From: an uncultured Lachnospiraceae bacterium
GTDB lineage: Bacteria > Bacillota > Clostridia > Lachnospirales > Lachnospiraceae
Assembly: GCA_947382355.1 (NCBI GenBank)
Contig: CANCYR010000003.1
Location: 52,139 to 116,138 of the forward strand
DNA: 64,000 nucleotides
Direction of reading: 5' to 3'
Shown: piece after piece, positions 1 to 38,905 of the stretch
Numbering within the stretch: position 1 is the stretch's first letter
Layout of the letters: the number at the start of each line of letters is the position of its first letter
The notes under the pieces: generated by a model
What the model was told of the DNA's origin: nothing
Databases searched by the model: none
The model's input: the letters and a program-made list of their open reading frames with translations, nothing else
Made by a program: the position numbers and the translations under genes

Positions 1-80
1 GGAGGGGGAATTCCCTCCCGTTGTTCGTGGAAATTATGTTTTATTTGGGGTATGTAAAAAGAGAGAAAGGAGGGTTCCTT

Positions 81-3000
81 ATGAAGAAAAATGTAATAAA
101 GCAATGGTTAAGTATTTTTCTGGCGGCAGCTGTATTGGTGAACGGTTCTGCCTGTGATTTTTCCGGAACGGTAAATGCTACCATGACGGATTATGAAATA
201 GAAGAAGGAATTGATGAAACATCTGTATCGGAGAACAGTTCTATAAATACAGATGAAGCATCTGAAGACAATGTCATAGAGGATGAAGATGTTCTGGAGG
301 AACCGGGACTCATACAGGATTCAGATAAAAGCTCCGGAGTATATTATAATACTGGAAGCAATATGACCGACTTCCGCGATGAAACCATTTATTTTGTTAT
401 GACTACCAGATTTTATGACGGAGACACTTCCAATAATGTACAGTGCTGGGACGGCAAGGATAAAAACGGCGAAAGCGACCCGCCCTGGAGAGGGGATTTT
501 AAGGGGTTGATTGAAAAGCTGGATTATATTAAGGCATTGGGCTTTACTGCAGTCTGGATTACTCCCGTTGTAAAAAATGCCAGCGGATATGATTACCATG
601 GCTATCATGCCATCAACTTTAAAGAAGTGGACCCCAGATACGAATCCGATGACTGCACTTACGAGGATTTGATTGAAGCGGTGCATGAAAGAGGCATGAA
701 AATCATTCAGGACGTAGTATTTCAGCATACCGGCAACTGGGGAGAAGAAAATCTGTATCCTATGTTTACCAAGTCGGAGACCAATCTGGACACGACTGCC
801 TGTATGCAGAGGAATATGAGCATGGCATGGGATCCCAATTATGAAACATTTATGCCGGAGCATGAAAGAGGTGCTAAACAGCTTCGTGACAGGCTGAAGC
901 TGATGAACGCGGATTCGGATGCCGGCACCAAATATGATATGAACGATATTTATCATCATGAAGGCTTTGTAGGAAGCTCTTTTGAGCAGCCAATCGTACA
1001 GTACGGGTCTATCCATTATGCGGACTGTATGGATTTAAATACAGAAAATCCAAAGGTATACCATTATCTGGTAGATGCGTACAGCGATTATATCCGGATG
1101 GGAGTGGATGCTTTTCGTGTGGATACGGTAAAGCATATTTCAAGACTTACATTAAACAAAGCATTTAACCAGCAGTTAAATGATGCTTATAATGAAACCC
1201 ATGGAACAAGCGGCGAAGGAAACTTCTTTATGTTTGGAGAGGTATGTACCAGATGGAGAGGGACATGGAACAGCGGCATTCCCTCTATTTCTACTCCTTT
1301 CTATACATGGAAGGAAACAGAAGACTATGCCTGGGACGACAGTGAAACGGCTGCTGCCAATACAACCAATAATGCTTCTGCAAAGCAGCATTATAATGAC
1401 TATGCAGGAAATACAGACAGCCAGCCTACCAATGACAATGAAAAGCTGCGGGGCAATGAATATCATACTCCGGACCACAGCCAGCATTCGGGCATGAACG
1501 TAATTGACTTTCCTATGCATTGGGCTTTCAAGAGTGCAGGGGAGGCATTTCAGCAGGCATTGGCGGAAGACCCGTATTACAATGATGCCACCTTTAATGT
1601 TACGTATGTGGATTCCCATGACTACGCGCCGGACAATGCGCCGGAAAATGTACGGTATAACGGCTCTACGGAGCAGTGGGCGGAAAATCTTTCCCTGCTT
1701 TTTACCTTCCGTGGAATTCCGTGTATTTATTATGGTTCTGAGGTAGAATTCCAAAAAGGAGAGCTGATTGACCAGGGACCCAACATTCCCCTTGCTGAAT
1801 CCGGCAGGGCATACTTTGGCGATTATATTGAAGGAAGCGTGGATGTAGTAAATTTTGCAAGATACACAAATGCAACAGGAAAAATGGCGGAAACTTTGAA
1901 TCATCCATTATCTCTTCATATCCAAAGGCTGAACAGGCTGCGTGCCTCCGTTCCGGCTTTAAGGAAAGGACAGTATTCCACAGAAGGCTGCAGCGGAAGC
2001 TTTGCATATAAGAGACGTTATACGGATGAAAATACGGATAGCTTTGCACTGATTGCCTTAACCAGCGATGCTACCTTCAGCGGAATTCCTAATGGCACTT
2101 ATGTGGATGCCATTACCGGCGATACAAAGAATGTTACGGGGGGAACCCTCAGCACATCCGGTATTAAGGGACAAGGCGATTTACGGGTTTATGTATTGAA
2201 TACGGACAAAACAAAGGCTCCCGGCATGATTGACGGAAAGAGCGCATATATGTCAGGCGGTACGGATAAGGTTGAACTGATACCGGATGAAGGCGGAAGC
2301 GAATCCATACCGGCAACAGGCATTACCCTTGATAAAAGCTCTGCAAATCTGGACCTTGGAGGGACAGCAGTATTTACAGCAACTATTGCACCTTCCGATG
2401 CTACCAATAAGAGAGTTATCTGGTCTTCTGATAAGGAAACAGTGGCAAAAGTAAACAGCAAAGGAACAGTTACTGCGGTAGGTGAGGGAACTGCAAAGAT
2501 TACGGCGAAAACTTCAAATGGACATTCTGCAACTGCTACGGTAACAGTAACGGCATCTGGAATCAAGGTGACGGGAGTGACGGTAAATCCTCAGTCAGCC
2601 AGCATAAATGAAGGGGAAACACTGCAATTGAGTGCGTCTGTGACCCCATCTAATGCAGATCCCAAATATGCTGCCCTTACATGGCAATCCAGCAATACAA
2701 AAGTAGCAACGGTTGACCAGACGGGACTGGTAACGGCAAAGAAGCAGGGAACTGCCATTATAACAGCGCAGACAGCATATTTTGGCAAGTCCGCAGAGGC
2801 AGTAATCAATGTGGAAGGACCTAAGATTAACTTTTTAGACGGGGATGCAGTTTATTTTGAGAAGCCTTCCGGCTGGGGCTCAGTCAAGGCATATTTCTGG
2901 ACAGATTCACCTAAATGGGATAACGGATGGCCGGGTGAAGAAATGCAGGTTGTAAATGAAAGTGCAGGAATATACGGCATTAAGCTTCCGGCAGGAAAAT

Positions 3001-4946
3001 CTGCAGCGGACTTAAAGGTTATCTTTACCGACGGAGGAAGCCAGACAGATGACTTAAAAATAGTTGTAAACGGCTATTATGATAGTACAGGATATATAAG
3101 GACCCTGGATCCAAATGATAAGGGAGACATACCGAATATTTCGAAAAATATCAGCGTTTCCTTTGCAAATCCGGGAGAAACATATGTTTATGACGGAACG
3201 GAAAAGAAACCGGACGTTATGGTAAAAGCGGACACAACAGTTTTGACAATGGGAAAGGATTATATCGTGCGCTATATGAATAATGTAAGCGCAGGCAGCG
3301 AAAACTCACAGGCATCGGCTCCAACGGTAATTGTTACAGGAATTGGCAGCTATACTGGAAAAATAAACAAAAACCTGACTTTTACAATTGAGCCTAAGAC
3401 GATTGTGGAAAGCAATGTATCCATAGCTGCCGGAGCCCATACTTACACCGGAAAACCCATTACTCCAAATGTATCGGTTATGGCTGGGGGAACTGTTCTG
3501 GTAAAAGATGTAGATTATGAAATTACTTATAGCAATAACATAAACGCAGGAAATGCAGAAGTAGTTGTAAAAGGATTATCCAATTATACCGGAACAGTGC
3601 AAAAGGAATTTACAATAGGAAAGGCAGAAATACCCAAGGGAGCTCCTCAAAGTGAAATGACGGCAGCTGCCGGACTGAAGGTGTCGGACGTGTATCTGGG
3701 AAGTGGCTGGGAATGGTCTGCTTCTGACAGAGATACTCTGATTGAAGAAGGAGAGACGGTTTTAGCAACTGCTGAATACACCGGCACAGACAAGGATAAT
3801 TATCGTATTCTTAACGTACAGGTTTTGCTCAGGGGCATTAACTGTACCCATGAGGATTCTTCCAAACACAAGATAGAGGGAGCCATAGAGGCAACCTGTA
3901 CCACTGACGGCTACAGCGGGGATAAGATCTGCACCAACTGTCAGACAAAGATTGAAGCCGGGAGAATCATACAGGCAACAGGACATATGTGGGAGAGTAC
4001 CCCTCGCATCGATAAAGCGGCTACCTGTACCATGGCTGGAAGCAAATCCGTTCATTGCAGCAAATGTGATGAAACAAAGGATAAGGGCATCGTTCCGGCA
4101 CTGGGGCATACAGGCGGAAGGGCCACCTGCAGCTCACAGGCAAAATGCGTCAGATGTAAGGAACCGTATGGAACATTTGGCAATATTCATACCTGGGATG
4201 GGGGAAAAGTGACAAAGGCTCCGACAGCAGCAGAGGATGGTGTAAGAACCTATACCTGTACGGAATGTAAAATAGAAACGAAGACAGAAGTGATTCCAAA
4301 GCTTGGCGGAGGCAGTGGAACAGGCAGTGGAACAGGCGGAGGCACTGAAACAGGCAGCAGCCTGAAGAAAGGAGATGCCGTAAAGGATACCGCCTCAAAT
4401 GCAACATACAAAGTTACAAGTGCGGATGCTTCCGGGAAAACAGTGGAATATACAGCACCGGTAAAGGCTGCAAAGACCGTGAAAATCCCAAAAGAAATTG
4501 TTATAAAGGGAAATACCTATAAGGTTACATCCATTGCAGGTAATGCATTTAAAAATAACAAGACAATTCAAACTCTAAAAATAGGCGGCAATGTAAAAAC
4601 CATTGGCAAAAGTGCATTTTCCGGATGCAGCAGGCTAAAGAAGGTAACGCTTTCTTCAGGTACTGCAACCATTGGAAATAACGCATTCTATAAATGCACC
4701 AAGCTTACAAGCATTACCATCCCCTCCAAAGTGAGCAAGATAGGAAGCAAAGCATTTTATGGCTGTAAGAAACTAAAGAAAATTACGATAAAGACTTCGA
4801 AGTTAACGAGTAAAAAGGTTGGAAGCAAGGCATTTAAGGGCATTGCAGCAAAAGCTACGATTAAAGTCCCCAAAAAGAAGCTGACAGCTTATAAAAAGCT
4901 TTTAAAGTCAAAAGGGGTTGGAACAAAAGCAAAGATTAAAAAGTAA
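81..4946 (+). CDS. Secreted multidomain GH13 alpha-amylase (1621 aa): signal peptide, acidic linker, GH13 catalytic domain, two Big_2-like Ig domains, CBM25/26-like module, MBG-like repeats, Cys/His repeat units, BspA-type LRR, Lys-rich tail
   Basis: Track ORF 21..4946. I moved the start to ATG 81 (MKKNVIKQWLSIFLAAAVLV..., hydrophobic signal sequence), just downstream of the SD AAAGGAGGG. GH13 conserved regions are present: I DVVFQHTG, II GVDAFRVDTVKHI, III FMFGEVC, IV YVDSHDY. Big_2-like segments are ITLDKSSANLDLGGTAVFTATI... and VTVNPQSASINEGETLQLSASV.... A starch-binding-like segment reads AVYFEKPSGWGSVKAYFWTD..GWPGEEM. The C-terminal module is shared with the next two genes. Confidence 0.88.
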   Translation: MKKNVIKQWLSIFLAAAVLVNGSACDFSGTVNATMTDYEIEEGIDETSVSENSSINTDEASEDNVIEDEDVLEEPGLIQDSDKSSGVYYNTGSNMTDFRDETIYFVMTTRFYDGDTSNNVQCWDGKDKNGESDPPWRGDFKGLIEKLDYIKALGFTAVWITPVVKNASGYDYHGYHAINFKEVDPRYESDDCTYEDLIEAVHERGMKIIQDVVFQHTGNWGEENLYPMFTKSETNLDTTACMQRNMSMAWDPNYETFMPEHERGAKQLRDRLKLMNADSDAGTKYDMNDIYHHEGFVGSSFEQPIVQYGSIHYADCMDLNTENPKVYHYLVDAYSDYIRMGVDAFRVDTVKHISRLTLNKAFNQQLNDAYNETHGTSGEGNFFMFGEVCTRWRGTWNSGIPSISTPFYTWKETEDYAWDDSETAAANTTNNASAKQHYNDYAGNTDSQPTNDNEKLRGNEYHTPDHSQHSGMNVIDFPMHWAFKSAGEAFQQALAEDPYYNDATFNVTYVDSHDYAPDNAPENVRYNGSTEQWAENLSLLFTFRGIPCIYYGSEVEFQKGELIDQGPNIPLAESGRAYFGDYIEGSVDVVNFARYTNATGKMAETLNHPLSLHIQRLNRLRASVPALRKGQYSTEGCSGSFAYKRRYTDENTDSFALIALTSDATFSGIPNGTYVDAITGDTKNVTGGTLSTSGIKGQGDLRVYVLNTDKTKAPGMIDGKSAYMSGGTDKVELIPDEGGSESIPATGITLDKSSANLDLGGTAVFTATIAPSDATNKRVIWSSDKETVAKVNSKGTVTAVGEGTAKITAKTSNGHSATATVTVTASGIKVTGVTVNPQSASINEGETLQLSASVTPSNADPKYAALTWQSSNTKVATVDQTGLVTAKKQGTAIITAQTAYFGKSAEAVINVEGPKINFLDGDAVYFEKPSGWGSVKAYFWTDSPKWDNGWPGEEMQVVNESAGIYGIKLPAGKSAADLKVIFTDGGSQTDDLKIVVNGYYDSTGYIRTLDPNDKGDIPNISKNISVSFANPGETYVYDGTEKKPDVMVKADTTVLTMGKDYIVRYMNNVSAGSENSQASAPTVIVTGIGSYTGKINKNLTFTIEPKTIVESNVSIAAGAHTYTGKPITPNVSVMAGGTVLVKDVDYEITYSNNINAGNAEVVVKGLSNYTGTVQKEFTIGKAEIPKGAPQSEMTAAAGLKVSDVYLGSGWEWSASDRDTLIEEGETVLATAEYTGTDKDNYRILNVQVLLRGINCTHEDSSKHKIEGAIEATCTTDGYSGDKICTNCQTKIEAGRIIQATGHMWESTPRIDKAATCTMAGSKSVHCSKCDETKDKGIVPALGHTGGRATCSSQAKCVRCKEPYGTFGNIHTWDGGKVTKAPTAAEDGVRTYTCTECKIETKTEVIPKLGGGSGTGSGTGGGTETGSSLKKGDAVKDTASNATYKVTSADASGKTVEYTAPVKAAKTVKIPKEIVIKGNTYKVTSIAGNAFKNNKTIQTLKIGGNVKTIGKSAFSGCSRLKKVTLSSGTATIGNNAFYKCTKLTSITIPSKVSKIGSKAFYGCKKLKKITIKTSKLTSKKVGSKAFKGIAAKATIKVPKKKLTAYKKLLKSKGVGTKAKIKK

Positions 4947-4992
4947 AAGGGCCAAATCGTGTAAAAACGATTATAAAATGAAAGGAGAAAGA

Positions 4993-7900
4993 ATGAAGCA
5001 AAGAAAAGCAATGAAGGCAGTATCCCTGTTTATGGCATTTATTCTGGTATTTACTACCAGTGCATGGTCTCAGGCTTTGGAAGCAGAGGCGGTTTTTGCA
5101 GAGCAGGATGCTTTGACAGATAATATGGAAGAAGCCCCGGAGCAATCCGGGGCTGAAGGAGAAGCTGAAGCTGCGGAAGAATCCGCAGATAGTCTGGAGA
5201 CGGAAACAGAAGATGGGCAGGAAGCTTCGCAAGAGCAGATGGAGCCGGATGAATCGGAAGAAAGTGAAGAGCCGGAGGAGGAAGACGAAGACGGGGTAGA
5301 AAATCCGGATGATTTGCTGGAAGAGGATACCATAGATGAGTCGGATATGTCAGGAGAGACCACGATTGTAAAAACAGGTTCTCCGGAGCTTAGGGACAAG
5401 AAATTTTCCTGGGACAATGCAACTGTGTATTTTGTTCTGACAGACCGTTTCCTGAATGGAGATAAATCAAACGACCATTCCTATGGCAGGGGGTTAAAAG
5501 AAAACAGCAGTTCCATGGTGGACGGGCTTGATACCTATACAAATCCGGGAACCTGGCATGGCGGGGATTTAAAAGGTCTGACCCAGAAGGTGGAAGAGGG
5601 ATATTTTGATGACCTTGGTGTAAATGCCATCTGGATTACAGCGCCTTATGAGCAGGTACATGGCTATACATCGGCAAATATACAAAGCAATAATGCAAAT
5701 CAGTATCCGGATCCGGCCAGAGGAGGATTTCCTTATTACTCTTATCATGGATACTGGGCTCTTGATTTTAGCCAGATAGATGCCAATATGGGTTCAGAGG
5801 CAGATTTTAAAAATTTTGTGGACAGCTGTCATGAGCATGGCATAAGAGTAGTTATGGACGTGGTAATGAACCATGTGGGCTATACTACCATGCAGGATGC
5901 CGTCGATTATGGATTTGACGGTACGTTAAAGGGAAATTGGAGAGAATATTACTACGGAAATTCTACCTATCTGATGGGTGGAGACCCGGAATCCTCGAAT
6001 TTCTGGGAGCAGCAGTCAGAGCTTTGGAGGACGAAATGGTGGGGACCCGGCTTTGTGCGGGCATCTTATCCGGGCTATACTGCAGCAGGCGGCGACGATT
6101 ATCATATGAGCTTAAGCGGGCTTCCCGACGTGGTTACAGAATCTTCGGCTTCAGCTGTGCCAACGCCTCCGCTTCTTGTAAATAAGTGGACGCAGGAAGG
6201 AATACTTGCCAAGGAACAGGGGGAACTGGATGCATTTTTCCAGAAAACCGGATATAGTAAACAGCCACGTTATTATATTATTAAATGGCTTACGGACTGG
6301 GTTCGGGAATACGGAGTGGATGGCTTCCGCTGTGATACCGCAAAGCACGTGGATAAAGATGCATGGAAGGATTTAAAGACGGAAGCAAATAAAGCATTGA
6401 AGGAATGGCGGAGCAATAATCCTAATGCGGCAGGCAGCCAGTGGACGGATGATTTCTGGATGACGGGAGAAGCCTGGGGACATGGGCCGGGAAAAAGTGA
6501 GTATTTTACAGAAGGCGGCTTTGATTCCATGATTAATTTCCAGTTCAATAAGTCCGGAGACCCGGCAGGAATGGAAGGAACATACAGTGGTTATGCGGCA
6601 GATATCAATAGTGATCCAGAGTTTAATGTGTTAAGTTATATTTCTTCCCATGATGACAGCGACAGCACAATGGGCGTGTGGAGGGCTACAGATGATAAAA
6701 ATATGGACCTTGGAACCTGTCTGCTGTTATCACCGGGCGGTGTGCAGATTTATTATGGAAATGAAATAAACAGGGGACTTGGATGGGTGGACTTCTTTAC
6801 CGGAAATGATTATCTGGACCAAAGATTTCGTACAGATATGGACTGGAATGGTGTCACCGGAGCAAAGGCTTCTGTATTGAAGCACTGGCAGAAGGTAGGA
6901 CAATTCCGCAGCAACCATCTGTCTGTAGGGGCAGGACAGCACGAAAAATTGTCTGATTCCCCATATACCTTCAGCAGGACGTATCATTTAGAAGAGGATG
7001 ATGAGGACAAGGTAGTAGTCGCACTGCCAAATACAGCAGGAACCTTCAGTGTTCCGATAGGCTCTGTCTTTGAGGAGGGAGAGACCCTTACCGATGCTTA
7101 TTCAGGAAATAAGTATGAGGTGAAGAATGGCAGCGTATCCGTTACCTGCGACAGCAATGGAGTTATTTTGCTGCAGGGCTCCGGCATTGTGAAAGCAAGC
7201 GTTAATGCAAAGACAAAAAATAACCAGACTACTTATTCAAGCGATACTTTTGATATTACATTAAGGGCAAATAAGGCAGCCGATACATATTATTCCATAA
7301 ATGGAGGAACAAAGCAGCCTTATGAAAACGATCAGGTGATTACTATCGGAGGAGATACGGCATATGGTGAGGAAACTACTCTTACACTGACAGGTACTTC
7401 CATGGACGATGGTTCTGCCCTCACGAAGACCATTAAGTATAAAAGAGGTCCGGAACCTCTTATCAGTGATGGAATCTTTTATATCAAGGTGAAGAAAAGT
7501 GATTTTTCAAGTCCGCCCAGTATTTATGTATATACTGAAACTACTCCTGCGCAGGAGCCTGCCGGGAAATGGCCGGGAGCAACGCTGACAGAGGATGAGG
7601 ATTCGGATTACTATTCTTATAAAAATGAAAATATTACTTCAAGTATGCGGGTTATTTTTATACAGGGTTCCTGGAGAAGCACTCCGGAGGGAGCAGACGG
7701 ACTGGCAGCACAGGGTTGTATGCTTTATGACAAGAGCAGCAATACATTGTCAGAACTGCCTTCCGGCGAGCCCGGAAAGGTGACCATTAATTATAAGAAA
7801 GAAAATGGAGAAATCATAAAATCCATTTATAGAGTAGGAGTAGTAGGAAAGCCATATAAAACATATCCGGCTGTAGTCAGCGGATATACTTTAAAGACGA

Positions 7901-9822
7901 CACCTGCCAATGCAACAGGTACATTTGCAGAGAATGTAACCGTAGATTATATTTACAGCACAGGGGATGCTCCTGTAGGCGGTATAAGTATTGCAGCATT
8001 TACGGCAAGTCCTCTTAGCGGCAGCGCATATAAAGGAAGCCTTGTGAATCTTGAAGCGGCTGCAACAGGAGGAACGGGCGCTTTGCAGTATAAGTTTACT
8101 GCACGGCTGGGAAATGGCAGTGAGAGCACCATACAGGATTACAGGACAATCAATAATGTTTCATGGACTCCCCAGACAGCCGGAAGATATACCCTGAAGG
8201 TATACGTGAAGGATTCTGCCAATAAGATTGCGGAGAAAACAATAGCAAATTATGAGGTAAAAGAAAATTCCTCGCCAAATCCGTCGCCAAATCCGTCGGA
8301 TATCCAGATTGCCTTTGCCAATGAGACTTTAAGATATGTTTATAATGGCAGTCAGCAGAGGCCGGGCGTGGTCGTAAGAGAAGGGACAAAGACCTTGACA
8401 GAAGGAATGGACTACAGTCTGTCCTATTATAACTGTATCAATGCTGCTGACAAGGATTCACAAAATGCTCCAACGATTATCGTTTCAGGCAAGGGCGATT
8501 ATACAGGAAAAATTATAAATGTGAAACTGACCTTTACGATAGAGAAGGCGAATATACCAAAAGGCGCTCCAGAGAGTACAATGACGGTAGCAGCCGGTCC
8601 GGTTTCAAACTTAGCGTTGAATGCGGGATGGGAGTGGGCGGATTCTGATAAAAATGTTATCATTCAGGTTGATGAGACCATTTCTGTAATGGCTGTTTAC
8701 AACGGAACAGATAAGGAAAATTATAAGACCACAAGCATGACAGTAAGTCTTACAGGCATTTCCTGTGACCATCCGGTTTCAGAGCGGGAGACCATAGTGG
8801 CAATAGCTCCAACCTGTACCCAGCCGGGTCGTAAGGACGTTGTTTGTAAAAGATGTCATACAACCATGGATGAAGGTGAAGTTTTACGGGCATTAGGTCA
8901 TACAGGCGGAACAGCAACCTGTTCCTCACAGGCAACTTGTGGAAGGTGCGGCGGAAAGTACGGTCCTTTTGATAATACGAAGCATGCAAATATAGTTCTT
9001 CAGAATAAAAAAGCAGCAAATTGCCAGCAGGCAGGATACACGGGAGATGCTGTATGTCAGGATTGCGGCTCCATGATTTCTTCCGGAAAGCCTGTTGCAA
9101 AAACCGGGCATATATGGGATGCCGGGAAAGTGACGAAGGCGCCTACAGAAACAGCAAATGGAGTCAGAACATATACCTGCACTGCATGTAAGACGGCAAC
9201 TAGAACAGAATCAATTCCAAAGATAGCAGGAAACGGATTAAATACAGGGGATTCTGTCATTGATGCTTCTACCAAGACAGTCTATAAAATTACCAAGACA
9301 AGTTCCACAGTGAAGCAGGTAGAGTTTGTATTGTCTTCCGGTTCAGCTAAGAATGTGACTATACCGAATAACGTAGTCCTAAAAGGCACTACCTATCAGG
9401 TAACCTCCATTGCGGACAATGCGTTTAAAAATAATAAGACCATTCAAACTGTGAAAATTGGAAGCAATGTAAAAACAATTGGAGAAAATGCATTTTCCGG
9501 CTGTAGCAGGCTAAAGAAGGTAACCCTTTCCAAGAACACTGTAACAATTGGAAGCAAGGCATTTTATAAATGTACGAAACTTACAAATATAACGATTCCT
9601 TCCAAAGTAAGTAAGATTGGAAGCAAGGCATTTTATGGCTGTAAGAAGTTGAAAAAGATTACAATTAAAACAACCAAGTTGACAAGCAAAAAGGTTGGCA
9701 GTCAGGCATTTAAAGGGATTGTCACAAAAGCATCCATTAAAGTTCCCAAAAAGAAGCTGGCTGCATATAAGAAGCTCTTAAAAGCAAAAGGGGTCAGCTC
9801 CAAAGCGAAAATAAAAAAATAA
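4993..9822 (+). CDS. Secreted multidomain GH13 alpha-amylase, MalS-like catalytic core (1609 aa), with poly-acidic linker, CBM-like module, MucBP-like segment and the shared MBG/Cys-His/LRR/Lys-tail C-terminal module
   Basis: Track ORF 4918..9822. Start placed at ATG 4993, 3 nt after AAAGGAGAAAG, giving the signal peptide MKQRKAMKAVSLFMAFILVFTTSAWS. GH13 regions: I DVVMNHVG, II VDGFRCDTAKHV, III FWMTGEAWGHG, IV YISSHDD. The MucBP-like segment is GKVTINYKKENGEIIKS...GYTLKT...VTVDYIY. Confidence 0.88.
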   Translation: MKQRKAMKAVSLFMAFILVFTTSAWSQALEAEAVFAEQDALTDNMEEAPEQSGAEGEAEAAEESADSLETETEDGQEASQEQMEPDESEESEEPEEEDEDGVENPDDLLEEDTIDESDMSGETTIVKTGSPELRDKKFSWDNATVYFVLTDRFLNGDKSNDHSYGRGLKENSSSMVDGLDTYTNPGTWHGGDLKGLTQKVEEGYFDDLGVNAIWITAPYEQVHGYTSANIQSNNANQYPDPARGGFPYYSYHGYWALDFSQIDANMGSEADFKNFVDSCHEHGIRVVMDVVMNHVGYTTMQDAVDYGFDGTLKGNWREYYYGNSTYLMGGDPESSNFWEQQSELWRTKWWGPGFVRASYPGYTAAGGDDYHMSLSGLPDVVTESSASAVPTPPLLVNKWTQEGILAKEQGELDAFFQKTGYSKQPRYYIIKWLTDWVREYGVDGFRCDTAKHVDKDAWKDLKTEANKALKEWRSNNPNAAGSQWTDDFWMTGEAWGHGPGKSEYFTEGGFDSMINFQFNKSGDPAGMEGTYSGYAADINSDPEFNVLSYISSHDDSDSTMGVWRATDDKNMDLGTCLLLSPGGVQIYYGNEINRGLGWVDFFTGNDYLDQRFRTDMDWNGVTGAKASVLKHWQKVGQFRSNHLSVGAGQHEKLSDSPYTFSRTYHLEEDDEDKVVVALPNTAGTFSVPIGSVFEEGETLTDAYSGNKYEVKNGSVSVTCDSNGVILLQGSGIVKASVNAKTKNNQTTYSSDTFDITLRANKAADTYYSINGGTKQPYENDQVITIGGDTAYGEETTLTLTGTSMDDGSALTKTIKYKRGPEPLISDGIFYIKVKKSDFSSPPSIYVYTETTPAQEPAGKWPGATLTEDEDSDYYSYKNENITSSMRVIFIQGSWRSTPEGADGLAAQGCMLYDKSSNTLSELPSGEPGKVTINYKKENGEIIKSIYRVGVVGKPYKTYPAVVSGYTLKTTPANATGTFAENVTVDYIYSTGDAPVGGISIAAFTASPLSGSAYKGSLVNLEAAATGGTGALQYKFTARLGNGSESTIQDYRTINNVSWTPQTAGRYTLKVYVKDSANKIAEKTIANYEVKENSSPNPSPNPSDIQIAFANETLRYVYNGSQQRPGVVVREGTKTLTEGMDYSLSYYNCINAADKDSQNAPTIIVSGKGDYTGKIINVKLTFTIEKANIPKGAPESTMTVAAGPVSNLALNAGWEWADSDKNVIIQVDETISVMAVYNGTDKENYKTTSMTVSLTGISCDHPVSERETIVAIAPTCTQPGRKDVVCKRCHTTMDEGEVLRALGHTGGTATCSSQATCGRCGGKYGPFDNTKHANIVLQNKKAANCQQAGYTGDAVCQDCGSMISSGKPVAKTGHIWDAGKVTKAPTETANGVRTYTCTACKTATRTESIPKIAGNGLNTGDSVIDASTKTVYKITKTSSTVKQVEFVLSSGSAKNVTIPNNVVLKGTTYQVTSIADNAFKNNKTIQTVKIGSNVKTIGENAFSGCSRLKKVTLSKNTVTIGSKAFYKCTKLTNITIPSKVSKIGSKAFYGCKKLKKITIKTTKLTSKKVGSQAFKGIVTKASIKVPKKKLAAYKKLLKAKGVSSKAKIKK

Positions 9823-9870
9823 CAATGTTTTGGGTAGCAGGACTGAAAAAAGATATAAAGATGTGAGAGG

Positions 9871-9896
9871 TTGCCCATCCGGAAACGGATGGGCAG
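9871..9896 (+). terminator. GNRA-capped stem-loop between amylase 2 and the pullulanase gene (weak terminator or mRNA processing/stability hairpin)
   Basis: TTGCCCATCCG-GAAA-CGGATGGGCAG forms an 11-bp stem with a GAAA tetraloop. No U-tract follows (CATTGG), so termination is probably only partial. Confidence 0.35.
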
Positions 9897-9936
9897 CATT
9901 GGTTATAAGAAGGATTAGAAAAGGAGGAAGGGCAGT

Positions 9937-12900
9937 ATGAAAAAATTCCAGCAAAAAAGCAGATTGCTGAGTATTTTTCTTATTTGTGTTCTGGTAACGG
10001 CTTCTCTCCGCATGTGGCCTGCCATGGAGGTACACGGGGAGAAAGGAGAAGGTACAGTATATGCAAAACGTACCTTTGACAGCAATTACGACACGCAAAA
10101 TGCTTATAACGGCAATGATCTGGGATGTACCTATACGCCGCAAAAGACTACGTTCAAGGTATGGACTCCGGAGGCAAGCTCTGTTGTGCTGTGCAGATAT
10201 GCAAAGGGCAATGGAGGCAGCCCCATAGAGGAAGTGCCCATGACAAAAGGCGACAAAGGTGTGTGGAGCGTTACGATTTCAGGAGATATCGTGAATACAT
10301 ACTATACTTACAAGGTAACTGTCAATGGAAGTACCAAAGAGGCGGTGGACATTTATGCCAAGGCTGCAGGCGTCAATGGAGACCGGGCAATGGTAGTGGA
10401 TTTAGACAGTACGGACCCGGTTAACTGGGATAAGAATTATCAAAGGGAAAAAACACTTCTAAGCGATATCATTGTATGGGAGGTTCATATCAGGGACTTT
10501 TCCATTGATGCCAGCTCGGGCGTGTCTCAGGAAAACCGGGGAAAATATAAGGCGTTTACAGAAGATACTACAGTAAACGGAGAAGGCAGGGTGGCTTCCT
10601 GCGTCAATTACTTAAAGGAGCTTGGGGTGACCCATGTGCAGATTCTTCCCATGTATGACTATGCATCGGTGGAAGAAACGGCGGTTACCACCACTCCCGG
10701 CAGCAATTACAACTGGGGGTATGATCCGAAAAATTACAATGTGCCAGAGGGTTCTTATTCCAGCAATCCTTATGACGGAAACGTGCGTATCACAGAAATG
10801 AAGGAAATGATTCAGGCATTGCATGATGCAGGGATTAAGGTAATCATGGACGTGGTATATAACCATACCTATGATACGGCGGATTCTAATTTCAACAAAA
10901 TCATGCCGGACTATTATTATAAAATCAACAGCGACCTTTCCTATAATAATCAGTCGGGCTGCGGCAATGCCACCAGAAGCAAAAGCGCAATGTACCGGAA
11001 ATTCATGATAGATTCTGTTTCCTATTGGGCGGAGGAATATAATCTGGACGGCTTCCGGTTTGATTTGATGGGAATCCATGATTTGACAACCATGAATCAA
11101 ATCAGGAAAACCTTAGATGACAAATTCGGCAAGGACACCATTGTTCTTTACGGAGAGGGCTGGACAGCCGCAGAGCATGATACTGACAGCGCCTATAAGT
11201 CAAATGAAAGCAAGCTGGATTACGGCATTGGATATTTTAACGACCAGATCAGGGATGCCATCAAGGGCGAGCATAAGTACGATGATAATCATACTATCGG
11301 TCTGGTGCAGGCTAATTATTTTTCCGGCTCATTTATGGAACCGGGTGCAAAATGGCCTAACAATATATTTGGCGGAATCATGGGTTCAGTAGGGTATACC
11401 AGCGGCCAATGGGGCGAGTGGCGGCCTTTCTGGTCCAAATCCTCCAATTGCTCGTTGAGCTATACGTCGGCTCATGATAATCTGACACTGTGGGATAAGC
11501 TGGCAGGTGAAGTGGGCAAGAATTTTAACTCCATGGACGAGCGCATGTTAAAAATGAACAAAATGGCGGGAAGCGTGGTTTTGGTTTCCAAGGGCGGAGT
11601 ATTCATGCAGGCAGGTGAAGAATTTGCAAGGACGAAATATGGCGATGACAACAGCTATAGCTCCCCGGATTCCACAAATAAAATCGACTGGAACAGGGTG
11701 AATACCTATTCCGCCATCCAGAAATATTATCAGGGAATGATAAGCATCCGGAAGGCATTTTCCGGTTTCCGTTCCATACTTACAAGAAGCGGTGATAACT
11801 GGAACCCGGATAATAATAACCTGACATGGATCAGCAAGGAGGAGCTGGGGCTCATTGCATTTTATGAAACCAATAACGTGCCCGGAGAATGGGACCGGAT
11901 AGCGGTGCTGATCAACAATGCAACATCTAATAAGACAGTGAACTTAACCGGTTCCGATAGCTGGGTTATCATAGCGGACGGCAATACGGCTGGACTTGAA
12001 AAGATAAAAGAAACCGGCTCAAATGTGGAAGTACCCGGAAAATCCGTAGTGGTGGCAGTGCCAAAGGGAACCTTTGAGGCCAATAATGTCTCGGCAAATA
12101 AGCCGCCAGTCATTAGTGCTTCTAATTCCTTTGAGGCTGTGGCAGGAGAAAGCCTGTCATTTTCCGTGAAGGTTTCCGACCCAGATGGCGACAAAATAAC
12201 CATAACTGCTGTAGGAGTGCCAAATGGCGCTTCCTTTGATACAGCTTCCGGCACCTTCTTATGGGAAAAGCCTGTTGCAGGAAGCTATACTCTTATTATA
12301 ACAGCAAGCGATGGAAAGGCTGAGACAACTAAAAACATTAACATTACTGTAATGGAGAAAGAGGCTCTGGCAAAGAAAAAGCTGGAAAGCGCCCTTTCAA
12401 AAGCAAGAGAAAAGCTGGCCGCTGCTCAGGGAGCCCCGTCTGATTATGAAGCTGCTGCAGTTTCGGATTTACAGACTGTCATTTCAGAGGCGGAAGGACT
12501 TCTTCAGTCCGCCGGCACGCCGGAAGTATATGAAAGCACAGCAGAGGATCTGGAAGCTGCCATAAAAGCATGTGTATCTTTAAAGGCAAATCCCATTATC
12601 CGTATAAAGGCGGAGGGCTGGCAAAACCCTACTGTATATGTATGGAAGGGAAGCGGAACGAACGAGGTAAAGCTGGCTGGAGCCTGGCCGGGAACCGGAC
12701 TGACGGAAAAAGATGCAGAAGGCTATTATATATTTGAGCTGCCGGAGGGAACTACTGATTATTCCGTGATTGTAAACGACGGTGCAGCAGGCACCGCAAC
12801 ACAGACTGCGGACATTGCCGGCATTGCAGGCAACGTTGATATTACAGTCACTTCCTTTACCGGAAAAACCTGTACATTTGACAGAAAGGACCGTGAAGTG

Positions 12901-15048
12901 GGAACAGGCCCGGTTGAAATAGATAAAACTCTGCTGGCTTCACAAATAGAAAAAGCGGCACAGGTAATGCGGGATAATCCCAACAGTCCGTGGCTGTCGG
13001 AGCTGAATACCTGTCTGACGGAAGCAAAAGCGGTTAATGAAAATTCACAGGCAACTCAGGTGATGATTAACCAGAAAGTAAGAGCATTGAAAAAATCCAT
13101 TCGTGCAGTGGAAGAAAATAGTGAGCCTCCCCAGTCGGATATTAAGATTTCCTTTGCGGATGAGTCCGCAGTATATATTTATGACGGTACTCCAAAGGAA
13201 CCGGATATACTCGTAAAGGATGGAGAAAGGATTTTAACAGAAGGGACGGATTATAAGGTATCGTATCTGAACAACATCAACGCCTGCTCACTGCAGACTT
13301 CTGATGCAAATGCCCCCACAGTTATTGTTGTGGGAATCAACAGTTATGCCGGAAAAATAGAAAAGAATAACAGGCTGGTATTTACGATTGAGCGAAAGAC
13401 CCTTACAGACAGCAATGTATCTATTGCCGGAGCTTATACTTACACCGGAAATCCTGTTATTCCTGACGTAACGGTAACAGATGGAGCGGCAGAGCTTGAA
13501 AACGAAGAAGACTATGAAATGGACTGCAGCAACAATATCAATGCGGGAACAGCTGTTTTGACTATAACCGGAATCGGAAATTATACGGGAACAGTACAAA
13601 AGGAATTTACAATAGAAAAAGCGGCCATACCTGCAGGGGCGCCGGAAGCGGAGATGACAGTGGCTGTGGGACCGTTGAGTAATCTGCGGTTAAGCGGCGG
13701 ATGGGAATGGTCGGAAGCCGATAAGGATAAAGTAATAGAAGATCAGCAGACACTGGATGTAACGGTAGTATATGCAGGAGAAGACAGGGAGAATTATCAG
13801 GTCACAAGCATTGCAGTGAGAATTACCGGCATTGACTGCCAGCATGAAGAAGAATATATACAGATAAAAGATGCGAAAGATGCAACCTGTACGTCAGACG
13901 GGTACAGCGGAGATAAGATTTGTGTCAATTGTAAAACACTGATTGAGCAGGGTGCGCCTGTCATTGCAACGGGACATCAATGGGAAACTGCTCCAAGGAT
14001 CGATAAGGAAGCAACCTGTATAAAAGAAGGAAAACAGTCCATTCATTGCAGTCAATGTGATGAAGTAAAAGAAGAAAAGGTCATTCCCGCAACGGGGCAT
14101 CAGCGAAATACTCCAACAGTGGGGAAAGAACCTACATGTATAGCAGCAGGAGAACAGCTGATTGAGTGCATTCACTGCGGTGAAAAGCTGGATATGGAAA
14201 TCATTCCGGCATTGGGTCATACGGGAGGAACTGCAACCTGCTGTGCACAGGCAGTCTGCACCAGATGCAGCCAGCCATATGGAAGCTATAGCGATATTCA
14301 TAACTGGGATGCCGGAGTCGTAACAAAAACGGCTACAGCAACGGAAGATGGCATCAGGACTTATACTTGTAAAGACTGCCATGAAACAAGAGTAGAAGTG
14401 ATTCCAAAGACCGGAAGCGGCACTGGTCCTGTACATGGCGGTGATGACACACAGGGAGGCGGACTGAAGGCAGGAGATTCAGTAAAGGATTCCGTATCCA
14501 AGGCATCCTATAAGGTTACCAGAGCAGATGCCAATGTAAAAACAGTAGCTTATACAGCTCCTGCTTCCAAATCAAAAACAGTAACCATACCAAATACAAT
14601 TAATGTAAACGGCACAGATTATCAGGTGACCTCCATTGCATCAGGCGCATTTAAAAATAATAAAACCATTACCACGATTAAGCTGGGAAGCAATATAAAA
14701 ACAATTGGCAGCAGCGCATTTTACGGCTGCAGCAGGCTTAAAAAGGTAACGTTGTCAAAGAATCTGACCCAGATAGACAGCAAGGCATTTTACAAATGCA
14801 CAAGCCTCACCGGCATTACCATACCTTCCAAAGTAAGCAAGATAGGAAGTAAGACATTTTACGGCTGCAAAAAGCTGAAAAAGATTACAATCAAAACATC
14901 TAAGCTTACAAGCAAAAAGGTAGGGAGCAAAGCATTCAAAGGCATTGCCTCCAAAGCAACCATTAAGGTTCCAAAGAAAAAGCTTGCTTCTTATAAGAAG
15001 CTTTTGAAAGCAAAAGGAGTGGGGTCCAAGGCTGTTATTAAAAAATAG
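9937..15048 (+). CDS. pulA: Secreted type I pullulanase (GH13, 1703 aa) with N-terminal CBM48/PUD-like domain, Ig-like domain, coiled linker, CBM25/26-like module and the shared MBG/Cys-His/LRR/Lys-tail C-terminal module
   Basis: SD AAAAGGAGGAAG lies upstream of ATG 9937, and the protein starts with a signal peptide (MKKFQQKSRLLSIFLICVLVTASL). The pullulanase signature YNWGYDPKNYNVPEGSYS is present. GH13 regions: I DVVYNHT, II LDGFRFDLMG, III LYGEGW, IV YTSAHDN. Confidence 0.9.
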   Translation: MKKFQQKSRLLSIFLICVLVTASLRMWPAMEVHGEKGEGTVYAKRTFDSNYDTQNAYNGNDLGCTYTPQKTTFKVWTPEASSVVLCRYAKGNGGSPIEEVPMTKGDKGVWSVTISGDIVNTYYTYKVTVNGSTKEAVDIYAKAAGVNGDRAMVVDLDSTDPVNWDKNYQREKTLLSDIIVWEVHIRDFSIDASSGVSQENRGKYKAFTEDTTVNGEGRVASCVNYLKELGVTHVQILPMYDYASVEETAVTTTPGSNYNWGYDPKNYNVPEGSYSSNPYDGNVRITEMKEMIQALHDAGIKVIMDVVYNHTYDTADSNFNKIMPDYYYKINSDLSYNNQSGCGNATRSKSAMYRKFMIDSVSYWAEEYNLDGFRFDLMGIHDLTTMNQIRKTLDDKFGKDTIVLYGEGWTAAEHDTDSAYKSNESKLDYGIGYFNDQIRDAIKGEHKYDDNHTIGLVQANYFSGSFMEPGAKWPNNIFGGIMGSVGYTSGQWGEWRPFWSKSSNCSLSYTSAHDNLTLWDKLAGEVGKNFNSMDERMLKMNKMAGSVVLVSKGGVFMQAGEEFARTKYGDDNSYSSPDSTNKIDWNRVNTYSAIQKYYQGMISIRKAFSGFRSILTRSGDNWNPDNNNLTWISKEELGLIAFYETNNVPGEWDRIAVLINNATSNKTVNLTGSDSWVIIADGNTAGLEKIKETGSNVEVPGKSVVVAVPKGTFEANNVSANKPPVISASNSFEAVAGESLSFSVKVSDPDGDKITITAVGVPNGASFDTASGTFLWEKPVAGSYTLIITASDGKAETTKNINITVMEKEALAKKKLESALSKAREKLAAAQGAPSDYEAAAVSDLQTVISEAEGLLQSAGTPEVYESTAEDLEAAIKACVSLKANPIIRIKAEGWQNPTVYVWKGSGTNEVKLAGAWPGTGLTEKDAEGYYIFELPEGTTDYSVIVNDGAAGTATQTADIAGIAGNVDITVTSFTGKTCTFDRKDREVGTGPVEIDKTLLASQIEKAAQVMRDNPNSPWLSELNTCLTEAKAVNENSQATQVMINQKVRALKKSIRAVEENSEPPQSDIKISFADESAVYIYDGTPKEPDILVKDGERILTEGTDYKVSYLNNINACSLQTSDANAPTVIVVGINSYAGKIEKNNRLVFTIERKTLTDSNVSIAGAYTYTGNPVIPDVTVTDGAAELENEEDYEMDCSNNINAGTAVLTITGIGNYTGTVQKEFTIEKAAIPAGAPEAEMTVAVGPLSNLRLSGGWEWSEADKDKVIEDQQTLDVTVVYAGEDRENYQVTSIAVRITGIDCQHEEEYIQIKDAKDATCTSDGYSGDKICVNCKTLIEQGAPVIATGHQWETAPRIDKEATCIKEGKQSIHCSQCDEVKEEKVIPATGHQRNTPTVGKEPTCIAAGEQLIECIHCGEKLDMEIIPALGHTGGTATCCAQAVCTRCSQPYGSYSDIHNWDAGVVTKTATATEDGIRTYTCKDCHETRVEVIPKTGSGTGPVHGGDDTQGGGLKAGDSVKDSVSKASYKVTRADANVKTVAYTAPASKSKTVTIPNTINVNGTDYQVTSIASGAFKNNKTITTIKLGSNIKTIGSSAFYGCSRLKKVTLSKNLTQIDSKAFYKCTSLTGITIPSKVSKIGSKTFYGCKKLKKITIKTSKLTSKKVGSKAFKGIASKATIKVPKKKLASYKKLLKAKGVGSKAVIKK

Positions 15049-38546: not shown

Positions 38547-38633
38547 GTTGACAGTCAGAGGGATTGGTGCTATGCTTTTGATAATTTCAAAAGTTGGCAC
38601 CAATTTTTGAAAGCAGAATAAGATAAACTATAG

Positions 38634-38839: not shown

Positions 38840-38905
38840 TTCCCGCCAGCAACGAGCCAAGTGATTGCGCGCAGGCATTTGGCGGCTGCCAAAGGGAATC
38901 TGACT
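38837..38905 (+). repeat. Leader repeat F, copy 1 (about 69 bp) between the lysine-riboswitch terminator and the dapA RBS
   Basis: TTATTCCCGCCAGCAACGAGCCAAGTGATTGCGCGCAGGCATTTGGCGGCTGCC... matches 51851-51919 at roughly 85 % of positions. Confidence 0.85.

Follow-up and report, generated by a model that had tools for sequence, protein, structure and literature searches.

A polycationic C-terminal leucine-rich repeat module shared by tandem starch-degrading enzymes of a gut Lachnospiraceae bacterium: a possible device for cell-surface retention

Results and Discussion

Tandem genes for very large GH13 enzymes

The locus analysed here, from an uncultured gut Lachnospiraceae bacterium, contains a tandem array of very large GH13 enzymes with several CBMs and Sec-type secretion, three of which lie in the window (the whole stretch of 64,000 nucleotides that was analysed) and one just upstream of it. 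These three ORFs are all on one strand, the forward strand, on which every other feature given below with coordinates is also located. A1, a secreted GH13 alpha-amylase of 1621 aa, is encoded at 81..4946; A2, a secreted MalS-like GH13 alpha-amylase, at 4978..9822 (1614 aa) or, from the ATG at 4993, with 1609 aa; and P3, a secreted type I pullulanase of 1703 aa, at 9937..15048. A first-pass annotation of this DNA had described three giant secreted GH13 enzymes in tandem, separated by 46 and 114 nt, and this was borne out, with these gap lengths when the A2 start at 4993 is used. Between A2 and P3 there is a terminator-like hairpin with a 12-bp stem and a weak T tract (9870..9897), and a strong terminator-like hairpin followed by a T run is found 3' of P3 (15077..15119). 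Both are consensus matches only, and the second probably marks the end of transcription of the cluster.

A1 is composed of a signal peptide, the GH13 catalytic domain, two Big_2 domains, a CBM26 and the C-terminal cassette, with Pfam matches to Alpha-amylase (E 3e-37), Big_2 (E 2e-28), CBM26 (E 1e-16) and LRR_5 (E 8e-27), and its nearest solved relatives are Anoxybacillus/Geobacillus-type amylases (4e2o, 5a2b). A lipoprotein signal in A1 (LVNGSAC) was ruled out, since its Cys is replaced by Tyr in two orthologues. In A2, an acidic N-terminal region is followed by GH13, CBM26, MucBP, a Y_Y_Y/PKD-like domain and the cassette, and in P3 the order is CBM48, GH13, the pulA all-beta domain, Big_9, a helical spacer, CBM26 and the cassette. 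The Pfam model for GH13 (PF00128, cut-off 22 bits) was matched with 129 bits by A1, 111 by A2 and 39 by P3, and that for CBM26 (PF16738, cut-off 28.1) with 61, 39 and 48 bits, respectively. P3 is a type I pullulanase according to the NCBIfam model TIGR02104, which it matches with 622 bits (cut-off 504.5) over positions 3-603 of 605. The best NCBIfam score of A2 against the MalS-type PRK09505.2-5 was 464 bits, under the equivalog cut-off of 790; judged by these scores, A2 is homologous to MalS, yet no MalS equivalog. The motifs AFRVDTVKH and FMFGEVC in A1 and FWMTGEAWGHG in A2, which the first-pass annotation had quoted, are present in the translations, together with DVVFQH, GVDAFRVDTVKH and FGEV in A1 and GFRCDTAKH in A2. 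According to Pfam and NCBIfam, the three enzymes are two unrelated amylases and a type I pullulanase, in agreement with its two different amylase lineages, and each carries a CBM26; its remark that the catalytic halves are little alike is reflected in pairwise identities of only 23-30% over the GH13 regions.

The fourth enzyme, A0, is a GH13 amylase with CBM26 and CBM74, encoded just upstream of A1 and outside the window. Its residues 814-1334 match the CBM74 of Sas6 (7uwv/7uwu; E 2e-55, 191 bits), and its catalytic domain has its best similarity to Amy16 (9qf9, 336 bits). MucBP domains are found in A0 and A2. As read from the domain content, the set of A0, A1, A2 and P3 combines alpha-1,4 endo-cleavage from three GH13 lineages with alpha-1,6 debranching, and granule binding is supplied by CBM26, CBM48 and CBM74. 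We also noted that A0 can be described as a GH13_28-like amylase. The closest genome is that of the mouse-gut Lachnospiraceae MAG MGBC129207, with 91% identity in the terminal module and 89-97% in the regions orthologous to A1 and A2.

A common C-terminal cassette

A0, A1, A2 and P3 all end in the same ordered cassette, in which Ig-like repeats are followed by a GWEW beta domain, by 4-5 Cys/His mini-domains and, after a disordered linker, by an LRR_5 domain. The cassettes of A1, A2 and P3 align end to end with 61-62% identity, and with 81-86% across the last 110 aa. A common cassette on these three enzymes had been proposed before, with starts at 3150, 8299 and 13138 that match those from the alignment (3141/3147, 8290/8299 and 13126/13138), and its 4-5 Cys/His units, Gly/Ser linker and BspA-type LRR were all found again.

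In A1 the cassette begins with two beta-rich repeats (3147..3620) that show the motif Y.YDG...NN.NAG...G.GNYTG...FTI and are modelled by AlphaFold as strands with a pLDDT of ~80-90; according to the cassette alignment, A2 has one of these repeats (8299..8541) and P3 has two (13138..13614). The label 'MBG-like' that they had been given received no backing from HMMs, as the sole match of the cassette pieces to an MBG-type Pfam model at E ≤ 10 was MBG_3 (PF18887; E=3.5, 8 bits), and the resemblance consists of the motif and the beta-rich secondary structure in the AlphaFold model only. The GWEW domain follows at 3621..3839 in A1 (IPKGAP...GWEW...Y.G.D..NY; pLDDT 86-96) and, by alignment, at 8542..8760 in A2 and 13615..13833 in P3; no Pfam family was found for it in the cassette pieces at E ≤ 10.

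Cys/His mini-domains come next, four in A1 (3840..4301; C-x8-10-CxxC-x12-14-GH), four in A2 (8761..9222, from the cassette alignment) and five in P3 (13834..14409; AlphaFold mean pLDDT 88.7). Each unit is predicted as ~40 aa with three short strands (pLDDT ~90) and holds three Cys and a His, except for one unit type that has CxxC and His only. Similarity to zinc ribbons was sub-threshold in Pfam (E 0.08-1.7, with Zn_ribbon_11 at E 0.084 and DZR at E 0.47), and a Foldseek comparison of the model with the PDB gave nothing significant, the best E being 0.025 with a TM <0.15, while RPA12 zinc-ribbon chains appeared at E 0.2. The repeat is a common building block of surface proteins. Its structure is predicted with confidence, there is neither a Pfam family above threshold nor a solved relative for it, and we found no name for it in the literature searched. 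It is followed by a Gly/Ser/Thr linker in A1 (4302..4373), predicted to be disordered (pLDDT <50 at cassette residues 390-406), and, by alignment, by a short linker in A2 (9223..9249) and a Gly/Ser/Thr linker in P3 (14410..14475).

The terminal module of A1 is a polycationic LRR_5 of 190 aa (4374..4943; LRR_5 E 2.5e-28), and Pfam, charge counts and the alignment place its counterparts at 9250..9819 in A2 and 14476..15045 in P3. In Pfam, LRR_5 (PF13306, cut-off 27.7) was significant in all three enzymes, with E ~1e-27 and 94-96 bits. For the A1 module AlphaFold predicts a beta-hairpin N-cap, about five repeats, a Lys-rich C-cap helix (cassette residues 578-590) and a last strand (598-600), all with a pLDDT of 95-98; what had been called a poly-Lys tail is in this model that very helix and strand capping the LRR, and there is no loose tail. 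Foldseek matched the A1 module with a probability of 1.00 to TpLRR (6mlx), BACCAP_00569 (4oju), BACOVA_04585 (4fs7) and FAEPRAA2165_01021, a 'cell surface protein' (4gt6). In the case of 6mlx the E was 9e-8 and the target-normalised TM 0.65, and 4fs7 was found at E 2.5e-38 in a sequence search. PcpA (4cp6) is a further solved relative, and the NCBIfam model NF047961 (adhesin_HupY) was matched at E 1e-9 to 1e-10. The module shares family PF13306 and fold with these TpLRR/BspA-type proteins and differs from them in being one short, strictly C-terminal unit of extreme positive charge appended to enzymes. The known solved examples of LRR_5 form arrays that stand alone or lie N-terminally, and most of them either have no known function or are described as adhesins. 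In A1, 45 K/R stand against 5 D/E (net +40, pI 10.4) and in A2 42 against 5, and the last 110 aa of the four enzymes contain 31-32 K/R and 0-1 D/E (32 and 0 in A2).

Conservation of the terminal module

In each enzyme, conservation is highest in the last 110 aa. Their identity of 81-86% between paralogues compares with 26-73% for the other parts of the cassette, and in more distant orthologues they are 83-90% identical versus 51-82% in the enzyme part. Between the paralogous modules dN/dS is 0.045-0.09, with dN of 0.09-0.18 and pS of 0.60-0.78, which is near saturation. The modules cluster by orthologue and not by genome, and concerted evolution is thus absent. Recent gene conversion as the source of the cassette similarity was rejected because of a DNA identity of 71-80%, the saturated synonymous sites and the grouping by orthologue; on these comparisons the similarity is due neither to chance nor to recent conversion. 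The terminal module is more strongly constrained than the catalytic parts, which is expected for a targeting module, and in this respect the earlier proposal of such a module was supported.

Distribution and cargo

A census of the module was taken from the top 80 matches of a scan whose pattern was derived from the module, and it is informative about what the module is attached to, not about the number of secreted proteins without it. It yielded 74 loci from 58 genome assemblies, which are almost exclusively MAGs of Lachnospiraceae or of other Clostridia. Counting with a HMMER profile of the last 120 aa was discarded, since its 465,026 matches at E ≤ 1e-3 were swamped by generic giant LRR_5 arrays. 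At each of the 74 census loci the ORF ends with the module, no more than 0-24 aa being left beyond the match, and carriers range in length from 221 to 2778 aa. Occurrence on cytoplasmic proteins was checked, and the carriers were found instead to bear a hydrophobic, signal-peptide-like N-terminal segment (55 of the 62 full-length ones). The net charge of the census modules has a median of +37 (range +26 to +45; pI 10.3) versus -53 for the rest of the carriers (pI 4.7), which is acidic in 66 of 71. As cargo we found GH2, GH13, GH26, CBM25/26, CAP, Amidase_6, choice-of-anchor I, lectin-like and Flg_new domains and LRR arrays. From this range we infer that the module is not starch-specific and that many secreted enzymes and adhesin-like proteins of the Lachnospiraceae have it in common as their C-terminus. 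The word 'dedicated' in the earlier proposal did not stand, given the many non-starch cargoes in 58 assemblies.

The Cys/His repeats were also examined in 71 other proteins. At the end of these, 13 have a sortase-type motif plus TM, 10 have a C-terminal TM, three have SLH domains and five have the basic LRR, the remaining 40 being fragments or unclassified. In other proteins the Cys/His stalk thus directly precedes sortase signals, C-terminal membrane anchors or SLH domains.

These data bear on three readings other than retention on the producing cell. In one of them, which we consider unlikely, the terminal LRR_5 would act as an adhesin for a target outside the producer (mucus or matrix of the host, other bacteria, food particles) and tether enzyme and cell to a niche, as has been proposed for BspA, PcpA and HupY/LrrG. 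BspA-, PcpA- and HupY/LrrG-type relatives are described as adhesins, the relatives in sequence and fold are surface LRR proteins (adhesin_HupY, PcpA 4cp6, 4gt6), and A0 and A2 carry MucBP domains. However, an adhesive tip would be expected distal to the cell, and the LRR is instead C-terminal behind stalk and linker, where anchors sit; an LRR on a foreign surface would leave the enzymes without means of staying with the cell, and its presence at the end of GH2, GH26 and amidase proteins as well points to a housekeeping role. A C-terminal tag read by a dedicated export or processing system and perhaps later removed, as in the T9SS of Bacteroidota, would be in line with a module that is strictly C-terminal on proteins with signal peptides, whatever their cargo, and with the predicted flexible linker ahead of it. 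We regard it as very unlikely, since the carriers already have Sec-type N-termini, the IPKTG ahead of the linker is not conserved (IPKLG in A1, IPKIA in A2) and a 190-aa polycationic solenoid is a costly tag; moreover, we know of no export system of the T9SS-CTD kind in Firmicutes. Finally, the cassette might have no role in localisation and be inherited baggage or a solubility or stability element on freely released enzymes, as multi-domain Ig-like tails are frequent on secreted enzymes. A dN/dS of 0.05-0.09 in the module, its conservation above the catalytic parts, the strict positional rule across 74 loci and the conserved charge signature make this hardly credible.

Searches for anchors and scaffolds

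The lack of LPXTG, SLH, dockerin/cohesin and choline-binding repeats noted in the first-pass annotation held up in an HMM search for a missed wall-anchor signal. In A1, A2 and P3 there was no match to sortase-signal, SLH, dockerin, cohesin, LysM, CW_binding_1 or CW_binding_2 models of Pfam and NCBIfam at E ≤ 0.01, and SLH, CW_binding_1, CW_binding_2 and LysM were missing from the cassette pieces even at E ≤ 10 in Pfam. No hydrophobic segment was detected in the last 250 aa, where the maximal Kyte-Doolittle hydropathy over 17 aa was 0.55-0.57, and the C-terminal ends show no LPXTG-type signal composed of motif, hydrophobic segment and basic tail. The sequence IPKTG was dismissed as a cryptic sortase site, since A0 and P3 alone have it, the linker and a 190-aa domain come after it and neither a TM nor a basic tail accompanies it; the residues at this position form the end of the last Cys/His unit.

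Dockerin_1 was not matched by A0, A1, A2 or P3. The window and the 10 kb upstream of it yielded neither a cohesin or dockerin nor a candidate scaffold, and no cohesin-bearing scaffoldin was seen in the ~74 kb examined of the 133-kb contig. These results weigh on the possibility, unlikely in our opinion, that the basic LRR docks each enzyme to an acidic scaffold or receptor protein, which would give an amylosome-like complex other than cohesin-dockerin. LRR domains classically bind proteins, their solenoids being well-known modules for this, and the four co-located enzymes carry nearly identical copies of the module, on which strong purifying selection acts. In addition, A0 is an Amy16 relative with a CBM74, and the proximity of Amy16 and Amy4 via cohesin-dockerin is needed for resistant-starch synergy in Ruminococcus bromii (PMC12663171). 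However, besides the missing partner, the module is found on many unrelated cargoes in 58 genomes, and its uniform, extreme positive charge is equally compatible with a protein and with a polyanion. The pairing of cohesins with dockerins is largely species-specific, and the module would be unlike them, as it is conserved across genera and clusters by orthologue rather than by genome. Since no scaffold or receptor was found, an amylosome-like assembly is no more than a hypothesis, and plain co-display on the cell surface accounts for the data equally well.

The R. bromii amylosome, in which dockerins are used by the starch enzymes (PMC4611034), comprises the dockerin-bearing GH13 enzymes Amy4/9/10/12/16, the CBM26-CBM74 protein Sas6 and the sortase-anchored scaffoldin Sca2. 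The locus resembles it in having several large secreted GH13 amylases or pullulanases with CBM26, CBM48 and MucBP and one C-terminal non-catalytic module common to the enzymes, and also in A0, whose catalytic domain is nearest to Amy16 and whose CBM74 resembles that of Sas6. The goal is likely to be the same, namely a co-localised attack on starch granules (PMC12663171, PMC4611034). In contrast to the amylosome, no dockerin or cohesin was found in A0-P3, the common module is a polycationic LRR_5 preceded by a Cys/His stalk, the genes lie in tandem and the host belongs to the Lachnospiraceae, not to the Ruminococcaceae.

A possible module for surface retention

Who gains from the sugars that large polysaccharide-degrading enzymes release is decided by the way in which gut Firmicutes retain these enzymes on the cell. 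Of the devices for this, three have been well described, namely anchoring by sortase, wall-binding repeats (SLH or others) and complexes of cohesin and dockerin. We give about even chances to the reading that the terminal LRR_5 is a general module for non-covalent retention on the cell surface, placed behind a spacer stalk, by which the starch enzymes are co-displayed. The MBG-like repeats, the GWEW domain and the Cys/His mini-domains would form a semi-rigid stalk, followed by the disordered Gly/Ser linker and by the last 190 aa, folded as a compact BspA-type LRR_5 of ~+38 net charge that would serve for retention. Its most likely ligand would be either an anionic polymer of the envelope, namely teichoic acid or secondary wall polysaccharide, or some other component of the surface that is conserved, and the stalk would hold the acidic catalytic and CBM part off the wall, so that the whole starch-degrading set may be displayed together on the cell.

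Surface retention is suggested by the strict C-terminal position in 74 loci with signal-peptide-like N-termini in 55/62, the dichotomy between a basic module and an acidic rest of the protein, the constraint on the module (dN/dS 0.045-0.09), the generic cargo and the lack of canonical anchors in A1, A2 and P3. By analogy, it is also consistent with the LRR holding the position that sortase, TM or SLH anchors have in other Cys/His proteins, and in the predicted structure with a disordered linker that leads to a well-packed LRR solenoid with a Lys-rich capping helix. We know of no LRR_5 domain for which binding to a wall polymer is seen in an experiment or a structure.

Modules such as SLH, CWB2, choline-binding, LysM and the GW modules of InlB/Ami are often basic and have been proposed or shown to bind anionic wall polymers. 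Like them, the LRR_5 module is C-terminal, modular and attached to many unrelated secreted proteins of a single lineage, whereas its fold, an LRR solenoid, is entirely different. Among starch degraders, the group of E. rectale/Roseburia Amy13K and RINU_03380 shares with the locus a Lachnospiraceae host and giant multi-CBM GH13 enzymes with an N-terminal signal peptide and carries a C-terminal device for cell attachment, of which the LRR_5 of A0-P3 would be the putative counterpart (PMC5320581, PMC8288039). The big amylases of Roseburia and E. rectale have C-terminal sortase signals (PMC5320581), whereas A1, A2 and P3 are without an LPXTG-type motif, hydrophobic segment and basic stop-transfer tail; attachment of A0-P3, if any, would be non-covalent via a folded domain and not by sortase anchoring.

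With somewhat less than even confidence, we propose that the polycationic C-terminal LRR_5 represents an unrecognised class of Gram-positive envelope anchor, equivalent in Lachnospiraceae to LPXTG, SLH, CWB2 or dockerin and with the Cys/His array as its stalk. Lachnospiraceae may use it to display a complete set of resistant-starch enzymes, including CBM74, and would then have their own way of degrading granular starch, independent of the R. bromii amylosome. No description of a basic C-terminal LRR_5 as an anchor was found in the literature searched. Lachnospiraceae are a major group among butyrate producers. If the proposal is true, a fourth, lineage-wide device would change the reading of their secretomes, and hundreds of 'leucine-rich repeat protein' annotations would become predicted surface-displayed enzymes and adhesins. 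With its GH13_28-like CBM74 amylase, two further amylases and a pullulanase, the locus suggests resistant-starch machinery beyond R. bromii and Bifidobacterium. In ruminococcal cellulosomes, which are extracellular polysaccharide-degrading systems of gut Clostridia, LRR_5-dockerin proteins occur (PMC7480376); in these proteins it is the dockerin that does the targeting, with the LRR as its cargo, whereas in A0-P3 the LRR is in the targeting position and the enzyme forms the cargo.

Tandem GH13 enzymes and their cluster

Three GH13 enzymes lie in tandem on the forward strand of the window. A1 (81-4946) is an alpha-amylase (Pfam Alpha-amylase, E 3e-37) with two Big_2 domains and a CBM26; A2 (4978 or 4993-9822) is a MalS-like amylase carrying CBM26, MucBP and a Y_Y_Y/PKD-like domain (Pfam, NCBIfam); and P3 (9937-15048) is a type I pullulanase with CBM48, Big_9 and CBM26 (Pfam, NCBIfam). 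In NCBIfam, A2 scored at most 464 bits against the PRK09505 models, under the equivalog cut-off of 790, and P3 reached 622 bits against TIGR02104, above the cut-off of 504.5, which makes it a bona fide type I pullulanase. The public gene call starts A2 at ATG 4993, and with this start the intergenic gaps of 46 and 114 nt reported in the first-pass annotation are correct. The catalytic motifs cited there were found in the translated ORFs, and the catalytic halves are, as it held, distantly related (A1 vs A2, 30% over 198 aa; A1 vs P3, 28% over 119 aa). All three N-termini are basic and then hydrophobic (17-aa hydropathy 1.8-2.3), and the same scan detected no second hydrophobic segment beyond the N-terminus in A1, A2 or P3. 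Hairpins lie downstream of A2 (9870-9897) and of P3 (15077-15119, next to a T run); the 46-nt gap between A1 and A2 has none.

A fourth GH13 gene, A0 (1861 aa, L002:4315-9900), lies directly upstream of the window, to which an exact sequence match assigns the same metagenome contig (ENA ERZ12802909 NODE_93, 132.7 kb), the one contig of this genome that the analysis covered. Its 3' end is about 100 nt from A1. Within the A0-A1 intergenic space, window positions 1-18 form a perfect GC-rich inverted repeat, GGAGGGGGAATTCCCTCC. The catalytic domain of A0 is nearest to R. bromii Amy16 (9qf9, 336 bits), which has been placed in GH13_28 (PMC12663171), and to the B. subtilis amylase (1bag/1ua7). Its gene call carries Pfam matches to CBM26, MucBP and LRR_5, its residues 814-1334 align with the Sas6 CBM74 (7uwu, E 2e-55), and it ends in the same C-terminal cassette as the other three. 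The four proteins are secreted multi-CBM amylases plus a pullulanase with a common conserved C-terminal cassette; as enzymes, all are unexceptional representatives of known families.

The order A0-A1-A2-P3 is kept in the mouse MAG MGBC129207 (L003) and in L006, and related MAGs hold partial clusters (A1-A2-P3 in L004, A0-A1-P3 in L005). The cluster is flanked by core housekeeping genes (argS upstream; ispF, cysS, PBP, secDF and others downstream), and no starch-use transporter or regulator was found among them. One review tabulates CBM74 for degraders of resistant starch, namely R. bromii and Bifidobacterium (B. adolescentis, B. choerinum), with empty entries for E. rectale, Roseburia and Butyrivibrio, which are Lachnospiraceae (PMC8288039). 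A tandem four-gene set with CBM74 is unusual in a Lachnospiraceae.

Architecture of the cassette

That the three enzymes in the window end in one ordered cassette was confirmed by end-to-end alignment, with 61-62% identity. It consists of one or two beta-rich repeats (Y.YDG...NYTG...FTI), a 73-aa GWEW domain, four or five Cys/His units, a Gly/Ser/Thr linker and a 190-aa LRR_5 domain. The repeats had been called MBG-like; their motif is present, but HMM backing is absent (Pfam MBG_3, E=3.5), and no Pfam family was recognised in the MBG-like, GWEW or Cys/His pieces. An AlphaFold2 model built on a 21-sequence alignment (mean pLDDT 85) shows the first parts as beta-rich domains, predicts a disordered linker (pLDDT <50 at cassette residues 390-406) and gives the LRR very high confidence (pLDDT 95-98). 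In the model, the Lys-rich end, KKKLTAYKKLLKS, forms a helix and then the last strand, so that the supposed poly-Lys tail does not hang free but is the solenoid's C-cap.

Charge and constraint of the terminal LRR module

In each enzyme, the final 190 aa contain 42-45 K/R versus 4-5 D/E (pI 10.4), and the final 110 aa 31-32 K/R and 0-1 D/E, while the remainder of each protein has a pI of 4.7-4.95. Between paralogues, identity reaches 81-86% over these 110 aa, compared with 26-73% in the remaining cassette parts; between orthologues from more distant genomes, the same 110 aa are 83-90% identical and the enzyme parts 51-82%. At the DNA level the module is only 71-80% identical, with synonymous sites close to saturation (pS 0.60-0.78) and a dN/dS of 0.045-0.09; modules cluster by orthologue, not by genome. 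The saturated synonymous sites and the orthologue-wise grouping rule out gene conversion as the source of this likeness and therefore indicate purifying selection on old duplicates.

Carriers of the module in other genomes

Using the module alignment as query against one genome per GTDB species, we obtained at least 468 relatives and examined the best 80 matches. The best 74 loci fall in 58 assemblies, almost all of them gut MAGs (mouse, vole, ruminant, human) of Lachnospiraceae or other Clostridia. In all 74, the ORF ends 0-24 aa past the module match. Carrier length varies from 221 to 2778 aa; of the 62 full-length carriers, 55 have a signal-peptide-like start. The median net charge of the module is +37 (range +26 to +45); that of the carrier remainder is -53, and 66 of 71 remainders are acidic.

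The N-terminal cargo of 44 carriers comprises GH2 (4), GH13 (4), GH26, CBM25/26, CAP, Amidase_6, choice-of-anchor I, lectin-like, Flg_new and Big_2 domains and LRR_5 arrays, and a protein database search gave the same mixed picture. Contrary to what the first-pass annotation had proposed, the cassette end is thus not dedicated to starch enzymes; its LRR is a polycationic and strongly constrained module that sits strictly at the C-terminus of diverse secreted proteins. Four MAGs titled 'Bacteroides sp.' or 'Bacteroidales bacterium' (NALB_78xx; L029, L033, L060, L069) bear this Lachnospiraceae-type module on several contigs, and probably either their names or the bins are mistaken.

The Cys/His array

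The Cys/His units (3840-4301 in A1, 8761-9222 in A2, 13834-14409 in P3; relatives P0133-P0203) are about 40 aa long, with the consensus ATCTxxGxxxxxCxxCGxxxxxxxIPATGH, and a second type reads HxWDxGxVTKxPTxxxxGxxTYTCxxC. Pfam zinc-ribbon models matched them weakly (E 0.08-1.7). Modelled separately, the P3 region shows three short strands per unit (AlphaFold, pLDDT 88.7) and had no significant fold neighbour in the PDB. A search with the Cys/His region returned 71 proteins, most without any Pfam annotation: 13 end in a sortase-type motif, TM segment and basic tail, 10 in a C-terminal TM, 3 in SLH domains and 5 in the basic LRR, and 40 are fragments or otherwise unclassified. The repeat is widespread in Firmicutes surface proteins, and it is unusual in being unannotated, with no Pfam family above threshold. 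From these C-termini, the array thus typically borders the envelope anchor, and the basic LRR stands where that anchor would be. In P0134 and P0098, one of them a CHAP-domain protein, Cys/His arrays are followed by a second type of basic ending, a Lys-rich fn3-like C-terminal domain (...KKIKKLKSKKKYYIRIRTYK...KTVKTK), and basic C-terminal domains behind this putative stalk may be a broader theme.

In P3 (14401-14415), and at the equivalent site of A0, the sequence IPKTG marks the exact junction of the last Cys/His unit with the linker. Despite its resemblance to a sortase motif it was rejected as one, since A1 has IPKLG and A2 has IPKIA at this site and there is no TM segment behind it; probably it is just the unit-end motif IPATGH minus its His.

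Possible role of the module

Canonical anchors are absent from the enzymes, as first noted. We give an even chance to the module being a device that would retain proteins non-covalently on the cell surface, with the Ig-like and Cys/His parts serving as spacer; most simply, the LRR would bind an anionic polymer of the wall or some other conserved component of the envelope. Surface retention agrees with the known relatives, in which Roseburia and E. rectale equip large amylases with C-terminal sortase signals (PMC5320581) and R. bromii enzymes carry dockerins, their scaffoldin being anchored by sortase (PMC4611034). A0, A1, A2 and P3 would likewise be surface-displayed multi-modular amylases, but where the Roseburia and E. 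rectale proteins have a sortase signal, a basic LRR forms the C-terminus here. In R. bromii, synergy on resistant starch requires proximity of Amy4 and Amy16 (PMC12663171). Among the alternative roles of the module, a dockerin-like function and adhesion are about equally improbable, and a sorting tag or no role at all is less likely still. An LRR_5 domain in a targeting position is unusual, a basic C-terminal LRR as anchor was found in no NCBIfam or Pfam model nor in the literature searched, and there is a realistic chance that the module is a new class of anchor.

Other features of the window

A 730-aa protein (49222-51414, +) combines an N-terminal Amidase_3 with a C-terminal GH25 muramidase domain. 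The intervening part contains an acidic region as well as a stretch that looks hydrophobic on visual inspection (...IFLVMALIIAFLLGVTL...), and the protein showed no recognised wall-binding repeat. Its GTG start may be wrong, because the exact sequence is absent from the protein collection. For two ORFs, 26385-29162 (+, 925 aa) and 22724-23581 (+, 285 aa), Pfam gave nothing at E<=0.001; both adjoin a YARHG-domain protein (23695-25344).

Three RNA elements were detected. A T-box leader (17193-17426, +, 114.6 bits) precedes a hexapeptide-repeat transferase gene (17473-18165) and cysS (18295-19704). A TwoAYGGAY motif (34171-34334, -, 95.6 bits, gathering score 43), which Rfam classes as a cis-regulatory element without a stated function, lies between mgtE and bipA, and a lysine riboswitch (38627-38801, +, 113.5 bits) precedes the ORF at 38861-39832.
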